This document shows, in pieces, positions 16,814-43,543 of a stretch of 64,000 nucleotides of DNA. The stretch comes from an uncultured Actinomycetes bacterium (lineage in GTDB: Bacteria; Actinomycetota; Thermoleophilia; UBA2241), in the NCBI GenBank assembly GCA_963767005.1, contig CAVYCN010000014.1, positions 19,185 through 83,184 of the forward strand. Direction: 5' to 3'. The notes beneath the pieces are model-generated. The model did not search any database and was not told the DNA's origin. It saw nothing but the letters and a program-made list of their open reading frames with translations. The translations under genes were made by a program, and so were the position numbers. Position 1 is the stretch's first letter. Each line of letters starts with the position of its first letter.

Positions 16814-17941
16814 TCAGTCGTCGGCGGGCGACTCGACGGGCGCGGCGACCGCGGCGAGCAGGCCCTCGACGACGTCCTCGGGGCGGCGGCGCTCGGCCGC
16901 CGCGTCGCGCGAGAGCAGCAGGCGGTGCGAGAGCACCGGCACGGCCAGCCCGCCGACGTCGTCGGGGATGACGTAGCCGCGGCCGGCCAGGGCCGCCGAC
17001 GCCTGGGCCGCGCGCATGAGCGCGAGGGCGGCGCGCGGGCTGGCGCCGAGCGCGACGTCGGCGGCCTCGCGCGTGGCGCGTACGAGGTCGACGACGTAGC
17101 CCTCGACCGGCGGCGCGACGTGGACCGCGCGCACGACGGCCTGGGCGGCGAGCAGCTCCGCGGCACCGGCCACCGGACGCAGGGCGGCCAGCGGGTCGTC
17201 GGTGCGGAAGCGGCCGAGCATGGCCGTCTCCTCGGCGCGGCTCGGATACCCCATGCGCAGGCGCAGCAGAAAGCGGTCGAGCTGCGCTTCGGGCAGCGGG
17301 AAGGTGCCCTTCAGCTCGACGGGGTTCTGCGTGGCGAGCACGAGGAACGGGCGGGGCAGCGGGTGCGAGGTGCCTTCGATCGTGACCTGGCGCTCCTCCA
17401 TCGCTTCGAGGAAGCTCGACTGCGTGCGCGGTGTCGCGCGGTTGACCTCGTCGGCGAGCACGAGGTTGGCGAAGATCGGCCCGGGGCGAAAGTCGAACTC
17501 GGCGCTGCGCTGGTCGAACACCTCGCTGCCGGTGACGTCGGCGGGCAGCAGGTCGGGCGTGCACTGCACGCGCACGAAGCGCAGGCCGAGCGACGCGGCC
17601 AGGGTGCGCACCAGGAGCGTCTTGGCGACGCCGGGCACGTCGTCGATCAGCACGTGGCCCTCGGCGAGCAGGGCGACCAGGACCAGGCGCACCTGCTCGC
17701 GCTTGCCGACGATCACGCGCTCGACCGCGCTCGCCACGTCGTGTGCCAGGCGCTCGACGGGCGCGACGTCGGTGGCGCCGGTCGCAGCCGGGGCGGCGGC
17801 GGTCGCAGCCGGGGCGGCGGCGGTCGCAGCCGGGGCGGCGGCGGTCGCAGCCGGGGTGTCGACGGCCGCCGGCCGTGCGTCGGGTGCGGTCGTGATGGTC
17901 GGAGGGTGCTGTCGCTGCGGGTCGGCGTCCACGGGAGCCAT
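16814..17941 (-). CDS. moxR: MoxR family AAA+ ATPase
   Basis: GHVLIDDVPGVAKT, QCTPDLLPADVTG, LADEVNRATPRTQS, ATQNPVE..GTFPLPEAQLDRF; GGAGG RBS. Confidence 0.93.
   Translation of the reverse strand: MAPVDADPQRQHPPTITTAPDARPAAVDTPAATAAAPAATAAAPAATAAAPAATGATDVAPVERLAHDVASAVERVIVGKREQVRLVLVALLAEGHVLIDDVPGVAKTLLVRTLAASLGLRFVRVQCTPDLLPADVTGSEVFDQRSAEFDFRPGPIFANLVLADEVNRATPRTQSSFLEAMEERQVTIEGTSHPLPRPFLVLATQNPVELKGTFPLPEAQLDRFLLRLRMGYPSRAEETAMLGRFRTDDPLAALRPVAGAAELLAAQAVVRAVHVAPPVEGYVVDLVRATREAADVALGASPRAALALMRAAQASAALAGRGYVIPDDVGGLAVPVLSHRLLLSRDAAAERRRPEDVVEGLLAAVAAPVESPADD
17779..17856. repeat. 21-bp in-frame tandem repeat (about 3.7 copies) encoding PAATAAA in the MoxR N-terminus
   Basis: cggtcgcagccggggcggcgg at 17779, 17800, 17821 and partial at 17842. 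Confidence 0.9.
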
Positions 17942-21934: not shown

Positions 21935-23793
21935 CTAATGTGCGGGGCCGGTCGTCAGCGTGACGCCGGTGGTGTGCTGCTTTCCGGCCTTGTCGGTCCA
22001 GGTGATCGTGACCTTGTCGCCGGGGTGGTACTGCGTCATGAGGTCGGTGAGGCCGGTGGCGGAGCTTGCGGTCTGGCCGTTCACCGCCGTGATGACGTCG
22101 CCCTTCACGAGGCCGGCCTTGGCCGCCGGCGAGCCTGAGAGCACGCCGAGGATGGCGGCGCCCGAGCCCGACTGGGTGGCCGCGACCGAGAGCTTGACCC
22201 CCAGGAACCCCGTCGGCCCGATGTGGACCGTCGCCGACGACTGGTTGTGCTCGATCTGCGAGACGATCGTCATCGCGGTGTCGATCGGCACCGCGAAGCC
22301 CTGGTTCTGGGCGTTGAACGTGAACGTGCCCGAGGCCGCCGTGTCGACTCCGACCACCCTGCCGGCGGCGTCGACCAGCGCCCCGCCCGAGTCGCCCGGC
22401 TCGATGGCGGCGTTGGTCTGGATCAGGCCGGTGAGGTGCCTGGTCGTGCCGGTCACGCTGTCGCCGGCCGTGATCGAGCGGTTCAGCGCGACCACCTTGC
22501 CGCCGGCCGCGCTCGGCGTGCCGTCGAGGCCGCCGGCGTTGCCGATGCCGACGACACCGGCGCCGACCGCGAGCGCTGAGGAGCTCCCGAGCGTCGCGGT
22601 GGTCAGGCCCGAGGCGTGCTGCAACTGGATCAGGGCCACGTCCTGGGTGGCGTCGTAGCCGAGCACTTTGGCGGAGTAGGTGCGGCCGTTGCCGACGTCG
22701 GTGGCGGTGATCGTGCTGGCGCCGTCGACCACGTGGTTGTTGGTGAGTACGAGGCCCGACGAGCTGATCACGATGCCGGTCGCCTCGGCCTGACCCGTGG
22801 AGTCGGCCAGCAGCACGTGGATGTCGACCAGGCTGGGGGAGACCTTCGCGGCGATCTGCGAGACGTTGCTCGGCGAACCCGGCGCGGCGCTGGTCGAGCC
22901 GCTCGAGCCGCTGCCGCCGTTGCCGAACGGCGACAGGCCGCCGCTCCCGCTGCCGTTGCCGTTGCCGAACGGCAGGCCGTTCGCGCCCGAGTTGCCGTTC
23001 TGTGTCTGTTGAGCGCTCGAGCCGTGCGTGAGCCAGAAGCCGTGCGCGATGCCGAGGCCGAGGAACAGACCCACGGCGAGCAGTACGACCCAGATCGCCA
23101 CGATCGGCAGGTAGGCCGGACGTCGCCGCGCCGCGGCCGGCGGTTGGGCAGAGGCCGGACGCTGCCATGGGCCGTACGGCGGCGGCGGGGCCGCCCCCCA
23201 CGGTTGCTGCGGCGGCGGTGTCCAGCCACCCGTCGGCGGCGGCCCCCAGCCTTGCGGCTGCTGAGCGCCGGGCCAGGTCGCTGTGCCTGCGGCTGCTGGG
23301 CGCCGGGCCAGGTCTGCTGTGCCTGCGGCTGCTGGGCGCCGGGCCAGGTCTGCTGGGGTGACGGCGGCGGTGCGACCGGCCAGCCTTGCTGCGGCGGTTG
23401 GGCGCCGGGCCACGCCTGCGGCTGCTGCGGGGCCTGCGGCGGTTGGGCGCCGGGCCACGCCTGCGGCTGCTGGGCGCCGGGCCAGGTCTGCTGTGCCGGA
23501 TCGCCCGGCGGCGGGCTCCAGGCCGGCGGTGGAGTCGGGCTCCACGGCTGCCAGGGCGTGCCCCAGGCCTGGGGCGGAGCCGTCCAGTTCGTCTGCTGGT
23601 CGGTCCAGGGCGCCTGCTGGTCGGCGCCGGGGACCTCGGGCGCGGCGGGCTCCTGCGGGCTTGCTCCGGTGCCCGGGCTCGCGCCCGCGGGGGCGCCTCC
23701 CGCCGGGTTCTCGGTGGGCTGGTCGGCGGGCCGGCGAACGTCGCCCTCCTCAGGGGCTGACGAAGGCCCGCCCTGGTCGGTCGGATCAGACAT
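21935..23793 (-). CDS. htrA: HtrA/S1C serine protease with PDZ domain; 1-nt deletion near 23280 in the N-terminal repeat region
   Basis: LTNNHVV, DVALIQL, IQTNAAIEPGDSGGAL catalytic motifs, PDZ and TM; N-terminal part (MSDPTDQ) lies in another frame. Confidence 0.88.
23255..23495. repeat. Imperfect tandem repeats encoding (T/A)WPGAQ(Q/P)PQ
   Basis: About 6 copies of gggcgccgggcca-containing units; boundaries approximate. Confidence 0.85.
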
Positions 23794-37391: not shown

Positions 37392-38489
37392 CTACTTCAG
37401 GACCGGGACGATCGTGAATGTCGCGTGGTTGTTGCTCAGGTGCTTCTCGCCGGGCACGGGGCCGGCCACGACGGTGAGAGTCAACGACTTGGTCATCGCG
37501 GCGGCGGGGATCTGCCAGCCGGTCACGGTGGCGGTGCGCTTGCCGTGCAGCGGGATGTTCGGGATCGACGTCGTGAAGGTCTGCGGCGCCGAGATCCCCG
37601 GACCGGTCATGGTGGCCTTCACCGTGACGTTGCTCTCGGCGCTGCCGCCCTGGTTCTCGACGGTGACGAGCACCTGCAGGCCGATCGAGGCGACGAAGTG
37701 GGTGGATGCGCCCACCGTCAGCGTCGTCGTCTTGCCGTTGCTGCGGACGGCGACGCCGCCCAGGCCGACCCCGTGCACGCCGGTGAGCTTGGTCGACGAC
37801 GAGATCGTCGCCAGGGCGGCCTGCAGGGCGCTCGCGCTGAACACGTTGCTGTGCGAGAAGAAGCTCACGGCCGGCACGGCCACGTTGCTCACGCCGTCGG
37901 CCGCCATGGCCTGCTGCGCCTGGCGGTAGAAGAGCTCGTTGTAGTAGACGTCGGGCCCGGTGAAGTAGCCCGACAGGGCCGCCAGCTTCTTGGCGGTCGC
38001 GGCCTTGTTCTTGCCGTTCAGGGCGGCGATCAGGCCGTCCCTCACCTGCTCGACGCCGGCCAGGCGCACGAGCTGGCCCTGCACGAGGATCTGGTGCAGC
38101 GCCTTGAGCTTGCCGGGCGGGCTGATGCGCTCGGTGCGCTGGGTGATCTCGGTCTGCGCCTGGACCAGGGTGGTGAGCTGGGTCACGAGCTGAGTACGGC
38201 CGTAGCGCGTGGGGTCGGAGAGCAGCGCCGCGATCGGCTTGCCCACCTTGTTCGCGGCGTCGCTCTGCACCTGCTGCACCTCGGTGAAGTACGTGCGATA
38301 CGACGACTCCTTGGCGTTCTGCTGGCAGGAGCGGATGACGAGCGCCAGCACGAACACGATCACGAAGAGTGCGACGAGCGCGATCACCAGGCGCTGGATA
38401 CGCAGGCGCGTGCGGTTGCGGCGGCGGCGCGGGCGCGGCGCGGGGCCTGATACCTGGGTTACCTCTGCGTCATCGTCGAAGAACGACAC
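37392..38489 (-). CDS. Membrane-anchored exported protein with C-terminal CARDB/Ig-like domain
   Basis: TM followed by RSC; C-terminal VTVENQG...E..V.V...PVPGEKHLSNN. Confidence 0.75.
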   Translation of the reverse strand: MSFFDDDAEVTQVSGPAPRPRRRRNRTRLRIQRLVIALVALFVIVFVLALVIRSCQQNAKESSYRTYFTEVQQVQSDAANKVGKPIAALLSDPTRYGRTQLVTQLTTLVQAQTEITQRTERISPPGKLKALHQILVQGQLVRLAGVEQVRDGLIAALNGKNKAATAKKLAALSGYFTGPDVYYNELFYRQAQQAMAADGVSNVAVPAVSFFSHSNVFSASALQAALATISSSTKLTGVHGVGLGGVAVRSNGKTTTLTVGASTHFVASIGLQVLVTVENQGGSAESNVTVKATMTGPGISAPQTFTTSIPNIPLHGKRTATVTGWQIPAAAMTKSLTLTVVAGPVPGEKHLSNNHATFTIVPVLK

Positions 38490-38551
38490 TAGGCGCTCCA
38501 CGCACTCAAGCCCGCCTGAGCGGTGACGGCGAAGCCGATCGCCGGCACTAG
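38490..38551 (+). repeat. Degenerate dispersed copy of the 59-bp hairpin repeat
   Basis: taggcgc...gcctgagcggtgacggcgaagccgatcgccggcactag matches the 40447 unit. Confidence 0.8.
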
Positions 38552-38568
38552 AGCTCCGGCCGGAGGAT

Positions 38569-38655
38569 TGGTGGGCGAGGCGGGATTTGAACCCGCAAGC
38601 TCTTGCGAGCACTAGGTCCTGAACCTAGCGTGTCTGCCAATTTCACCACTCGCCC
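38569..38655 (-). tRNA. tRNA-Leu(CAG)
   Basis: GGGCGAGTGGTGAAATTGGCAGACACGCTAGGTTCAGGACCTAG...GCGGGTTCAAATCCCGCCTCGCCCACCA; long variable arm, encoded CCA. Confidence 0.97.
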
Positions 38656-38751
38656 CTGTGGACCCCGAACAGGGTCAAGACTATACCACAGCGAATACTG
38701 GGCGGAAGGGCGAGACAAGCTCGGCCCCAAGCAGGACCGGAGGCTCCAGAG

Positions 38752-40449
38752 GTGGCTGTGCCGTCGTACGAGCAGACGCCGCTCTACACCGCCTGGCGGG
38801 AGCGCTACGAGATCGTCGGCCGCATCGGCGCCGGCGGCTTCGCCGACGTCTACGAAGCGTTCGACCGCCAGGCCGGCGCCGAGGTGGCGCTCAAGGTGAT
38901 CGACGAGCGCGGCGTGCCGCCCGGCCGCGTCGTGCGCGAGGTCGAGGCCGCCGAGGCGCTCGACCACCCCGCCATCGTCGCCCTGCTCGACTTCTTCTCG
39001 GACGGCCGGCGCAGCTTCCTGGTGTGGGAGCTCGTGCGCGGCCAGTCGCTCGCCGAGCTCGCCGGCGAGCTGCGCGACGACGAGGCGATGCTCGCCGCCG
39101 CGCAGCTCTGCGACGCGCTGGCCTACGCCCACGCGAGCGGCGTCGTGCACCGCGACGTCAAGCCCGAGAACGTGATGATCGACACGCACGGCCGGGTCAA
39201 GGTCATGGACTTCGGCATCGCCCGCCTGGCCGGCGCCGACACGATGACGGCCGAGGGCGAGCTGCTCGGCACGGTGGCCTACATGTCGCCCGAGCAGGCC
39301 GCCGGGCGGCGCGTGGGGCCGGCGACCGACGTCTACTCGGCCGGCGTGCTGCTCTACGAGCTGCTCGCCGGCAGTAACCCCGTGCGCGGCGCGACCGCCG
39401 GCGAGACCGTCGGCAACATCCTCGCCGGGCGTATCGCCCCGCTCGAGACCGCGCGCCCCGACCTGCCCGCCGAGCTCTGCGACGCCGTCGCGGCGGCCTG
39501 CAGCCTCGACGCCCGCGACCGCCCGGCGGCAGCCGACCTGGCGGCCTCGCTGCGCGGCCTCGCCGGCCGCCTCGCCGGTGGCCGCCGCCTGCGTCCCGCA
39601 CGGCTGCTCGCGCCGCTGCGCCGGCTGCACGTGGTCGCCGAGCGCGGCCTGGGCGCCGGCCTCGCGGCCGGCGCGCTGGCCGCGCTGCTCGCGCGCCTGC
39701 CGGCCTACCCGGCCGGCTGGACGCTGCCGCTCGCGCTGGCCGTCGTCGTCCTGTGGATCGTGCTGCCCGGAGCCGGCCTCGCCCTGGCGCTCGGCGCCGC
39801 CGCGTTCCCGCTCTTCAACGTCTCGGCCGCCGCCGGCCTCGCCTACCTGCCGGTCGCCGTGGTCGTGGCGATCGGCTTTCGCCGGCGGCCGCTCTTCGCC
39901 GTCTGGCCGGCGCTCGCCCTGCTGCTCGCGCCGGTCGCCGGCACGCTGCTGGCCGGGTGCGCAGCGGCCGTCTTCGGCCGCCGCCGCGCGCCGTTCCTGG
40001 CCGCCTGGACGGGGTTCGTCGTGTACCTGGTGCTGAGCATCACGGCGCGCACGCGCGACGCCTTCGCCGGCTACCAGACGCCGGGCCTGGCGGCCCGGCG
40101 CCTGCTCACGGCCGGCGACCCCGTGACCGCGTTCGTCAGCGTCGCCCATCTCCTGACGAGTCGCGCCTGCCTGTTGCAGGCCGCCCTGTGGGCCGGCCTC
40201 GCCCTGGCGCTGGCGGCCGCCGCGCGCCCCGGCCGGCTCGAGGCGCGACTGTGGCCGTGGTCGCTCGCCTTCTGCATCTTCTACCTGGCCGCCCGCGTCG
40301 TGCCGGTGTCGCTCTGGGGTGCGTCCGCCGGCGCGCGCGAGCTGCTCCTGAACGTGATCGTGGCCGCCTTGGTGAGCGGCGCCGTGCTGGCGCTCGCGCC
40401 GGCCGCTGCACGCCCGCTCGAGCCGGCCGGCGAGCCGCTGTGGGAGTAG
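38752..40449 (+). CDS. Hanks-type Ser/Thr kinase with polytopic C-terminal membrane domain
   Basis: GAGGFA, VALK, HRDVKPEN, DFG, YMSPE, DVYS; many C-terminal TMs. Confidence 0.92.
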   Translation: MAVPSYEQTPLYTAWRERYEIVGRIGAGGFADVYEAFDRQAGAEVALKVIDERGVPPGRVVREVEAAEALDHPAIVALLDFFSDGRRSFLVWELVRGQSLAELAGELRDDEAMLAAAQLCDALAYAHASGVVHRDVKPENVMIDTHGRVKVMDFGIARLAGADTMTAEGELLGTVAYMSPEQAAGRRVGPATDVYSAGVLLYELLAGSNPVRGATAGETVGNILAGRIAPLETARPDLPAELCDAVAAACSLDARDRPAAADLAASLRGLAGRLAGGRRLRPARLLAPLRRLHVVAERGLGAGLAAGALAALLARLPAYPAGWTLPLALAVVVLWIVLPGAGLALALGAAAFPLFNVSAAAGLAYLPVAVVVAIGFRRRPLFAVWPALALLLAPVAGTLLAGCAAAVFGRRRAPFLAAWTGFVVYLVLSITARTRDAFAGYQTPGLAARRLLTAGDPVTAFVSVAHLLTSRACLLQAALWAGLALALAAAARPGRLEARLWPWSLAFCIFYLAARVVPVSLWGASAGARELLLNVIVAALVSGAVLALAPAAARPLEPAGEPLWE

Positions 40450-40630
40450 GCGCGCAGCGCAGCCACGCATGCCTGAGCGGCGACGACGAAGTCGACCGCC
40501 GGCACTAGGCGCGCAGCGCAGCCACGCATGCCTGAGCGGCGACGACGAAGTCGATCGCCGGCACTAGGCGCGCAGCGCAGCCACGCATGCCTGAGCGGCG
40601 ACGACGAAGTCGATCGCCGGCACTAGGCGC
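40447..40630 (+). repeat. 59-bp tandem repeat, 3 copies plus 7-bp partial, containing a hairpin
   Basis: TAGGCGCGCAGCGCAGCCACGCATGCCTGAGCGGCGACGACGAAGTCGA(C/T)CGCCGGCAC at 40447, 40506 and 40565; no spacers. Confidence 0.95.
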
Positions 40631-42184: not shown

Positions 42185-43543
42185 GTGAGCCTCGTCGCCC
42201 GCCACGCCGCGCTGACCGACATCGGTCTGCACAGGACGACCAACGAAGACTCGTTCGTCGCCGAGCCCCCGCTGTTCGCCGTCGCCGACGGCATGGGCGG
42301 GGCGCAGGCCGGCGAGGTCGCGTCGGCCCTCGCCCTCGAGACGCTCGCCGAGGCCCTGGCCGGGCAGGCCGACCTGCCCGCCGCCGCCGGCAGCGCCAAC
42401 GGCCGCGTCTGGCGCGCGGCGCGCTCCGACCGGGCGCGCAGCGGCATGGGCACCACCCTGACGGCCGTGCTGCTGCGCGGCGACCGCCTCGAATACGCCC
42501 ATGTCGGCGACAGCCGTCTCTACCTGTGGCGCGACGGGCGCCTGCAGCAGGTCACCGACGACCACTCGCTGGTCGGCGAGATGGTGCGCGAGGGTCACCT
42601 GAGCCGCGAGGCGGCCCAGACCCACCCGCAGCGCAGCATCCTGAGCCGCGCCCTGGGCACCGAGCCCGACGTCGAGATCGACACCGGCGAGCTCCCCCTG
42701 CGGGCCGGCGACGCCGTGCTGCTCTGCAGCGACGGACTCTCGTCGATGGTGACCGACGACACGATTGCGGGCGTGCTCGCGGCGCTCGACGAGCCCGCCA
42801 GGGTGGCGCGCCGTCTGGTGAGCGAGGCCAAGAGCGGCGGCGGCCACGACAACATCACGGTCGTGGTGCTGCGCTTCGAGCGCGCGGACGGCGCCGACGG
42901 CGACGACGACGAGGACACCCTTGTGCCGGGCGGGGCGGCGGCTGTAGCCGCCGCCCCGCCCGGCACCCCGCCCACGCAGCTCTCGTTCGACGCCGCCGAT
43001 GGGCAGGCCGCACCGCCCGATGGGCAGGCGGCACCAGTCGGCGGGGCCGTGACGCCCGCCGACGGCCAAGCGGCCCCTGCCGGGGCACCGGCCGACGAGG
43101 CCGCGGCTTCCGGTGAGGCACCAGTCGGCGGGGCCGTGACGCCCGCCGACGGCCAGGCAGCCCCCGGCGAGGGACCGGCCCCCGAGGCGGCCGGCGCCGG
43201 CGCAGCCGCGGCGCCCGATGCGCAGCCCGCCGCCGCGCCGCGCCGCCGGCGGCGCCGGCGGCTCTGGCTCGCCGTCGTCCTGGTCGTGGTGCTCGCCGCG
43301 TGCCTCGGCGGCGGCGCGACCCTGGGCAGCCTGTACTTCGTCGGCGATCACGACGGCAACGTCACGGTGTTCCACGGCGTGCCGGTGACGGTCGCCGGCC
43401 TGAAGCTCTACGACCCGTACCTCGAGACGACCACGCCGCTCGCGGCCGTGCGGCCGGCCGTGCTGGCCCGCGTCGAGCGTCACGACCTGCACCGCAAGGC
43501 GGCGGCCCTGGCCCTCGCCCGCGAGGCGCAAGGCCAGCCGTGA
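42185..43543 (+). CDS. pstP: PP2C-family Ser/Thr phosphatase
   Basis: TDIG..R..NED, VADGMGG, GMGTT, HVGDSR, CSDGL, GGHDNIT; C-terminal TM. Confidence 0.93.
   Translation: MSLVARHAALTDIGLHRTTNEDSFVAEPPLFAVADGMGGAQAGEVASALALETLAEALAGQADLPAAAGSANGRVWRAARSDRARSGMGTTLTAVLLRGDRLEYAHVGDSRLYLWRDGRLQQVTDDHSLVGEMVREGHLSREAAQTHPQRSILSRALGTEPDVEIDTGELPLRAGDAVLLCSDGLSSMVTDDTIAGVLAALDEPARVARRLVSEAKSGGGHDNITVVVLRFERADGADGDDDEDTLVPGGAAAVAAAPPGTPPTQLSFDAADGQAAPPDGQAAPVGGAVTPADGQAAPAGAPADEAAASGEAPVGGAVTPADGQAAPGEGPAPEAAGAGAAAAPDAQPAAAPRRRRRRRLWLAVVLVVVLAACLGGGATLGSLYFVGDHDGNVTVFHGVPVTVAGLKLYDPYLETTTPLAAVRPAVLARVERHDLHRKAAALALAREAQGQP
43031..43155 (+). repeat. 38-bp direct duplication in the PstP linker
   Basis: gcaccagtcggcggggccgtgacgcccgccgacggcca at 43031 and 43118. 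Confidence 0.85.

Follow-up and report, generated by a model that had tools for sequence, protein, structure and literature searches.

MIRUs occur in tandem arrays and use DTGA as their target, and we know of no enzyme assigned to their movement. Described in excerpts of PMC12548453 as short actinobacterial repeats that are seemingly mobile and enter gene boundaries without doing much damage, they resemble in these respects the repeat family reported here. A second group of counterparts comprises the REP, BIME, and REPIN repeats, with which this family shares short intergenic bulged hairpins, a conserved mismatch, an AG-ending tetranucleotide at the foot of the stem, CT ends, locus-uniform tandem copies, and a copy number that varies between genomes (as characterized in portions of PMC8266576, PMC3333891, and PMC3733652). 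The enzymes acting on REPs are described as requiring the stem mismatch, and their AG-ending guide selects the CT that is cut; excision circles and rolling amplification have been proposed for these repeats, and BIME arrays are uniform within a locus (portions of PMC8266576 and PMC3333891). Further parallels are offered by the Ssn nucleases with NTS/SRM repeats, which likewise involve single-strand hairpin repeats (excerpts of PMC11893778), and by the CGTC-tagged REPs, which are likewise reported to be without a dedicated transposase (excerpts of PMC3733652). The literature searched contained no description of the present family.

The window, i.e., the whole stretch of 64,000 nucleotides analyzed here, carries two loci of this family, namely an array and a single diverged unit (Table 1). 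The array is a tandem repeat with a period of 59, 3.1 copies, and 99% matches in a repeat scan of the window, which bears out the three near-identical copies seen in a first-pass annotation and now extends them to 40630. Its unit cores occupy 40448-40502, 40507-40561, and 40566-40620 in a profile alignment, with units 2 and 3 identical and unit 1 differing from them by C/T. The junction reading CACTAGGCGC given by that annotation holds at the three later junctions only (ACTAG at 40504, 40563, and 40622); at the left end the sequence is GAGTAG, and the kinase gene stops at its TAG (40447-40449). In the genome G011, the same site holds two units. The kinase has a long membrane region, precedes the fhaA cluster, and is present in 9/12 genus genomes (E<=1e-80). 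The single copy was also correctly recognized: it lies between two ACTAG repeats, 18 bases from the 3' end of tRNA-Leu(CAG) (38569), and the A-T to G-C change on both sides of its stem is real in the alignment. Unrelated tandem repeats are found elsewhere in the window at 23253-23497, 17774-17856, and 43030-43188 (periods 36, 21, and 87).

Table 1. Coordinates of the repeat loci and their neighbors in the window
Feature	Position	Strand	Basis
Three 59-bp units arranged head to tail, followed by 8 nt (CTAGGCGC) of a fourth	40447..40630	+	sequence, repeat scan, alignment
Ser/Thr kinase gene, a host and no cargo, ending in the TAG with which the array begins	38752..40449	+	sequence, homologs
Lone diverged unit (core 38491-38545) with an ACTAG direct repeat on either side (38488-38492 and 38547-38551)	38488..38551	+	63.3 bits
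tRNA-Leu(CAG), neighbor outside the element	38569..38655	-	tRNA/Rfam search
Hairpin 1 in unit 2; C-GCA-G loop (40517-40521) on a 10-bp stem, with a C.A mismatch and a bulge of 2 nt	40507..40533	+	covarying pairs 4-28, 5-27, 8-22, 9-21, 12-18
TGAG at the foot of hairpin 2; putatively in the place of a REP-type guide tetranucleotide, by analogy	40533..40536	+	67/83 units; guide rule in a portion of PMC8266576
Hairpin 2 in unit 2; C-GAA-G loop (40546-40550) on a 10-bp stem, with a single bulged base	40537..40560	+	covarying pairs 34-55, 35-54, 36-53, 37-52
GGAG 6 nt ahead of the GTG codon (38489) that starts the 362-aa gene; probably a co-opted ribosome-binding site	38496..38499	-	sequence

In the genome of the window (G000; 3.44 Mb, 100% complete, 4.87% contamination), an iterated DNA profile recovered 142 units at E<=1e-3, against 0 in a reversed-genome control. 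These form 106 arrays (82 single, 14 double, 8 triple, and 2 quadruple), always head to tail, with periods of 58 (20), 59 (14), or 54 (2) and a unit length of 58/59 bp. Long overlaps that are 92-99% identical between contigs C6/C9, C5/C13, C15/C19, C6/C15, and C6/C17 indicate a strain mixture in the assembly. Since some contigs overlap, a few arrays may have been counted twice, yet no two arrays have a left flank in common. The genome-wide abundance, together with a terminator search that gave no match, rejects a local slippage duplication of a terminator, and the copies elsewhere and the covariation described below sustain the earlier idea of a dispersed element that is REP-like and specific to the lineage, with bulged GNA hairpins that covary.

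The exact motif was detected in 10/11 congeners, 1/13 other genomes of the same family, and 0/16 from other families. Within the genus, a covariance model gives at least 62 matches in each of 8 genomes, 5, 5, and 8 in three others, and 0 in G001; among 77 same-family genomes of other genera it gives one strong match, and the eight weak single matches in other genera look like chance. On a midpoint-rooted tree of three genes from 11 genomes, high copy number is seen in three clades and the low-copy genomes form one, with G001 being sister to two high-copy genomes. Searches of viruses returned no full unit, three partial matches, and none for hairpin 1; plasmids gave no match to the unit, Rfam has no family matching it, and no second CTAG-bounded repeat family was found in G000. 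We thus recognize a genus-wide family of 58/59-bp non-coding units of uncultured actinobacteria, each with two bulged GNA-loop hairpins and bounded by (A)CTAG.

Both hairpins of the unit have C-GNA-G loops; the one stem-loop originally annotated per unit is hairpin 2, and the bulged hairpin in the first half of the unit had been missed. In a test on 83 full-length units, each drawn from a different array, two-sided Watson-Crick changes at seven pairs, viz., 5-27, 8-22, and 12-18 of hairpin 1 and 34-55, 35-54, 36-53, and 37-52 of hairpin 2, were as frequent in 0/2000 shuffles, and those at pairs 4-28 and 9-21 were matched by 1/2000. A pairing of the opening C-T with the linker gained no covariation support in these 83 units. 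When 97 units, taken from the window and from fetched loci, were compared, 84 cells proved altered on both sides as against 19.8 in shuffles, and slid structures had far lower scores, although most of these loci were chosen by a pattern that fixes hairpin 1 and kinship inflates the counts. The C-GNA-G loops are kept in 63/83 (hairpin 1) and 62/83 (hairpin 2) units, with all four N seen, the C.A mismatch in 62/83, and the TGAG ahead of hairpin 2 in 67/83. Lone copies fold little or no better than shuffles (z -0.6 to -2.0); the structure is therefore established by covariation in the family and not by the folding of single copies. A.C pairs are more numerous than G.T pairs in hairpin 1, and a fold of the bottom strand, where these would be wobble pairs, accommodates this equally well. 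GNA is described as the sole triloop giving a very stable DNA mini-hairpin, and the RNA form of a related GCGAAAGC hairpin is reported as much weaker than its DNA form (excerpts of PMC13037366). The GNA triloops and the use of both orientations favor DNA over structured RNA.

The ends of the units point to a directional target. Left ends, recognizable in 63/106 arrays, have A (50/63), C (58/63), and T (38/63) before AG, with weak conservation further out; right ends, recognizable in 49/106, show A/C in 44, C in 37, T in 21, A in 30, and G in 32 of 49. As the next base is T in merely 2/49, the target is polar, and the orientation of the unit is fixed relative to the ACTAG word. (A)CTAG occurs at both unit ends and once at empty sites, a configuration in which a target-site duplication and a shared core look alike. 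On whether the AG derives from the element or the target, empty orthologs have another stop in 15/37 cases compared with a baseline of 32/98 (p=0.42). Terminal inverted repeats are absent, as 103/113 units match at <=6/10 positions, and the original description of the element as MITE-like is accordingly not supported.

With genes called in G000 by our own codon-pair script (3009 genes), 0/106 arrays lie inside a called CDS. In 30/106 arrays (28%) a gene's stop codon is provided by the first TAG, an opposite-strand gene finishes at the right end in 20/106, and a stop end is overlapped in either way in 48/106. CTAG is rare in this genome (1075 sites, 425 of them at stops), and free harmless sites lie at stops for 27% of ACTAG and 3% of ACT; as the 27% predicted for an ACTAG target matches the 28% observed, the availability of ACTAG already predicts the overlap with stops. 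With 52 of 78 ACTAG-ending genes free, about a third are filled. Strand shows no bias relative to GC skew (48 vs 58).

This placement bears on an alternative, distinctly unlikely in our estimation, whereby the unit acts at the RNA level as a 3' stabilizer, U-less terminator, or translation brake that is selected at gene ends and spread by gene conversion. The arrays beginning at stop codons and their absence from called genes would accord with such a role, as would the persistence of some sites across species and in the sole copy outside the genus, the bottom-strand G.U pairs that would complete hairpin 1, and the stalling of ribosomes described for E. coli REPs within 15 nt of a stop (portions of PMC12306157). 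However, the ACTAG target accounts for the stop overlap, arrays between co-directional genes lie in both orientations to transcription (45 sense, 20 antisense), and the covariation of pair 12-18 closes the loop such that the bottom strand has no cUNCGg tetraloop; the blank terminator and Rfam searches and the existence of a genome without any copy (G001) also speak against it.

What the unit combines, i.e., a polar core at both ends, no inverted repeats, strand-specific DNA-type hairpins that keep their irregularities, and head-to-tail arrays, fits single-strand cut-and-join chemistry. We therefore consider it somewhat better than an even proposition that a tyrosine nickase acting in trans, which was not found in these genomes, spread the units as non-autonomous mobile elements of the single-strand kind. 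In the proposed scheme, the enzyme would bind the folded top strand in exposed single-stranded DNA and cut within the CTAG core at both ends; joining of the cut ends would yield a circle of ~59 nt or a rolling copy, which would enter an ACTAG in the chromosome and be left with the core on either side. Arrays could then arise by rolling copying or by slippage after insertion. Given that CTAG is rare and mostly at gene ends, we propose that copies survive where the TAG stop is re-created.

With respect to the established classes, the unit is, like a REP, an intergenic, high-copy, imperfect hairpin with a mismatch (0/106 in CDS; C.A in 62/83). It differs in having CTAG/TGAG instead of GTAG (GTAG is at the left end in 6/106 arrays), in carrying its two hairpins in direct orientation on a single strand and not as an inverted REP-iREP pair, in its 5-nt polar target, and in a genus without RAYT; a REP/BIME assignment is rejected for want of a GTAG-type (or GGAG/GTGG-type) tag and of a repeat-flanked Y1 transposase gene. 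MIRUs differ in their insertion at start codons with a coupled mini-ORF, as opposed to ACTAG, mostly TAG stops, and two GNA hairpins, and membership is rejected with 5/106 arrays abutting an opposite-strand start as against 48/106 overlapping a stop end. The SRM motif of the Ssn/NTS-SRM repeats was found in 0/106 arrays and no small GIY-YIG gene is flanked by the repeat; an IS5/IS630-type MITE is discounted by the lack of terminal inverted repeats and the dissimilarity to those of the CTAG elements of the genus. The family is hence a real, structured, REP/MIRU-like small orphan repeat, yet neither a REP, MITE, attC, nor Ssn repeat.

Comparison of orthologous loci shows both filled and empty sites. 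The tRNA locus is empty in 7/8 relatives; in these, tRNA and kinase remain neighbors and the junction has a single ACTAG (4 genomes) or ACTGG (3). The bracketing of these genes by copies, to which the first-pass annotation drew attention, is thus incidental, and a composite element around them is rejected. No precise empty site was found, the relatives compared being too distant and several empties being deletion remnants. Among 22 arrays examined in G011, 20 are syntenic, of which 9 are filled in G000 and 11 are empty or remnant.

The units themselves indicate an old dispersal. None of 113 is identical to a unit in a different array, the commonest nearest distance being 6/55, and hence there is no sign of present activity; within arrays, 22/48 units have an identical sibling, and many arrays finish in partial units. 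Orthologous units were compared at 9 sites, 8 of them G011 loci and the ninth similarly close; the differences amount to 4-6 bases in 4 units and to 8-14/55 in the other 5, which have 1-3 compensated pairs and 7-91 non-orthologous G000 copies equally close to them. The difference between arrays, the identity within them, and the divergence of orthologs suggest that dispersal is old and that arrays are fast-changing, with units being replaced or converted.

These same dynamics could be read without any dedicated enzyme, as an old repeat upheld by slippage, ectopic conversion, and a template-switch correction of palindromes that produces two-sided changes without selection, a reading we hold improbable to much the same degree as an RNA-level role. 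It draws on the siblings restricted to their own arrays, the partial terminal units, the five divergent orthologs with compensated pairs, as from conversion, and a blank search for a mobilizer (see below). Still, it leaves unexplained how units came to enter about 100 unrelated sites that share one polar 5-nt word, and why copy number is high in three separate clades, and template switching would erase the mismatch and bulges, which are both kept.

The single-strand mobile element that we prefer calls for an enzyme, and the HUH partner suggested at the outset did not materialize. Y1_Tnp (PF01797) was detected in 0/12 genus genomes and in 2/89 of the family, both in low-GC stretches without the repeat; the REP-associated transposase model matched 0/10 congeners and nothing in G000, with 121/401 matches among class genomes and 1/79 in this family. 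At 30 class-level RAYT loci (L411-L440) the repeat is absent and unrelated repeats occur instead. Many class-level RAYT-like genes are flanked by short palindromes of the GGGGTCAGAC/GTGCCAGGCAC type. Rep_trans was found in 0/12 genus genomes and its motif set is absent from G000 and the fetched loci, such a Pfam blank being weak for an unannotated protein; a fitting HUH motif and DUF559 were each found nowhere in G000, and Y2_Tnp in 0/5 genus genomes, a blank that carries no information as the positive control was also silent. Neither a multi-copy CTAG-bounded ORF of 1.6-2.1 kb of unknown type in G000 or the fetched loci, nor a gene flanked by half-units, was found. Reverse transcriptase occurs in 0/12 genus genomes, and GIY-YIG matches are mostly two large conserved genes per genome, with a copy at 1/25 loci about 1.3 kb from the match. 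The searches for IS110, DDE, reverse transcriptase, tyrosine recombinase, GIY-YIG, and Rep_trans yielded no gene that follows the copy number or has units on its flanks, and the genus searches recovered none of the repeat-flanked RAYT/TnpA or IS110 genes that had been envisaged. A Pfam scan near closely spaced arrays (51/79 genes, 20 regions) revealed housekeeping or unmatched genes. Neighbors without a G000 homolog comprise 897 ORFs at 277 loci, with 41 within 700 bp of a copy and 34 clusters; the 13 clusters scanned yielded DUF308, BON, one HNH-associated repeat protein, and one pyrimidine-dimer glycosylase, each single.

The genus also contains two DDE_Tnp_1 insertion sequences that are CTAG-bounded with 12-15-bp inverted ends (L191 in G000:C9, L201-L204, L190, L195, and L199), and in one case such a copy has landed in a repeat array, within its last CTAG (L195:1098). 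Their presence, including one in G000, and this juxtaposition could suggest that the unit is a MITE-like passenger of these transposons, with CTAG as a 4-bp target duplication. We regard this as very unlikely: the unit is without a terminal inverted repeat and its ends are unlike those of the DDE elements, the target is polar, and 3 high-copy genomes lack DDE matches, which do occur in low-copy genomes.

A complete integron with an integrase gene and five canonical 87-93-bp attC sites is present at G000:C12:167665-172100 (L381:1009-2148 and beyond), with cassettes that we take to be HicA/HicB-type and nucleotidyltransferase-HEPN pairs. The least probable reading that we weighed, to which we give only a faint chance, makes the unit a substrate of a site-specific recombinase, either this type of integrase or IS110, using a CT/CTAG core. 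Judging from the sequence, GCCT..AG in tandem copies might pair with the next CTAGGC in an attC-like fold, and IS110 is present in 7/12 genomes; but the RYYYAAC/GTTRRRY boxes of attC (the 59-base element) were found in 0/106 arrays by the same kind of scan that found the five real attC sites, IS110 is missing from 5 high-copy genomes with the repeat at no IS110 locus (including the one IS110 of G000), and 0/30 tyrosine-recombinase loci scanned have a full unit.

Returning to a single-strand nickase, its leading candidate, which we place well below even odds, would be a Rep_trans-like protein of CTAG-targeting insertion sequences without terminal inverted repeats; a lost HUH enzyme of the RAYT/TnpA type comes second and is rather unlikely. 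The CTAG target, the lack of inverted repeats, and the hairpin ends of the unit are traits expected for a miniature of a CTAG-targeting Rep-like element. A bolder form of the former option, which we consider doubtful, is that the unit is the 58-59-bp minimal substrate of CTAG-targeting, Rep_trans-like rolling-circle transposons that fills a third of ACTAG gene ends by re-creating the amber stop and has been thrice co-opted as a ribosome-binding site; if true, it would be the smallest passenger of a new transposase class. In any case, this is a well-defined short repeat family with a polar 5-nt target, whose natural variants reveal which of its pairs, loops, and mismatches have been retained. 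Should its mover be a single-strand nickase, the unit offers a ready 59-nt substrate with which to find and assay that enzyme; until then it stands as an orphan hairpin repeat. It illustrates how a mobile unit can occupy about a third of one class of gene ends with proteins unaltered and be reusable as a ribosome-binding site.

The latter use is suggested by three G000 arrays that start with the variant GGCGCTCC, which places GGAG on the opposite strand 6-9 nt ahead of a start codon; all three, including the one at 38489, are among the 5/106 arrays abutting an opposite-strand start. A loose screen flagged 5 arrays, 3 of them with a start versus 2/101 others (p=5e-4, post hoc), and two variants of the GGCGCTCC type in relatives sit at stops instead. 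At the tRNA locus, the insertion splits the 362-aa gene from a G-rich site and an ATG that are present in three relatives. This conserved gene (37392-38489 of the window, minus strand) has no Pfam match and has the repeat at its start in both G000 and G011. At another site, the end of a gene that we take from its motif to be of the GGDEF type (G000:C8:70913; L079, L087, L148, L152, and L229), a unit is found in several species, including low-copy genomes and the sole copy outside the genus, and this site is possibly ancestral or selected.
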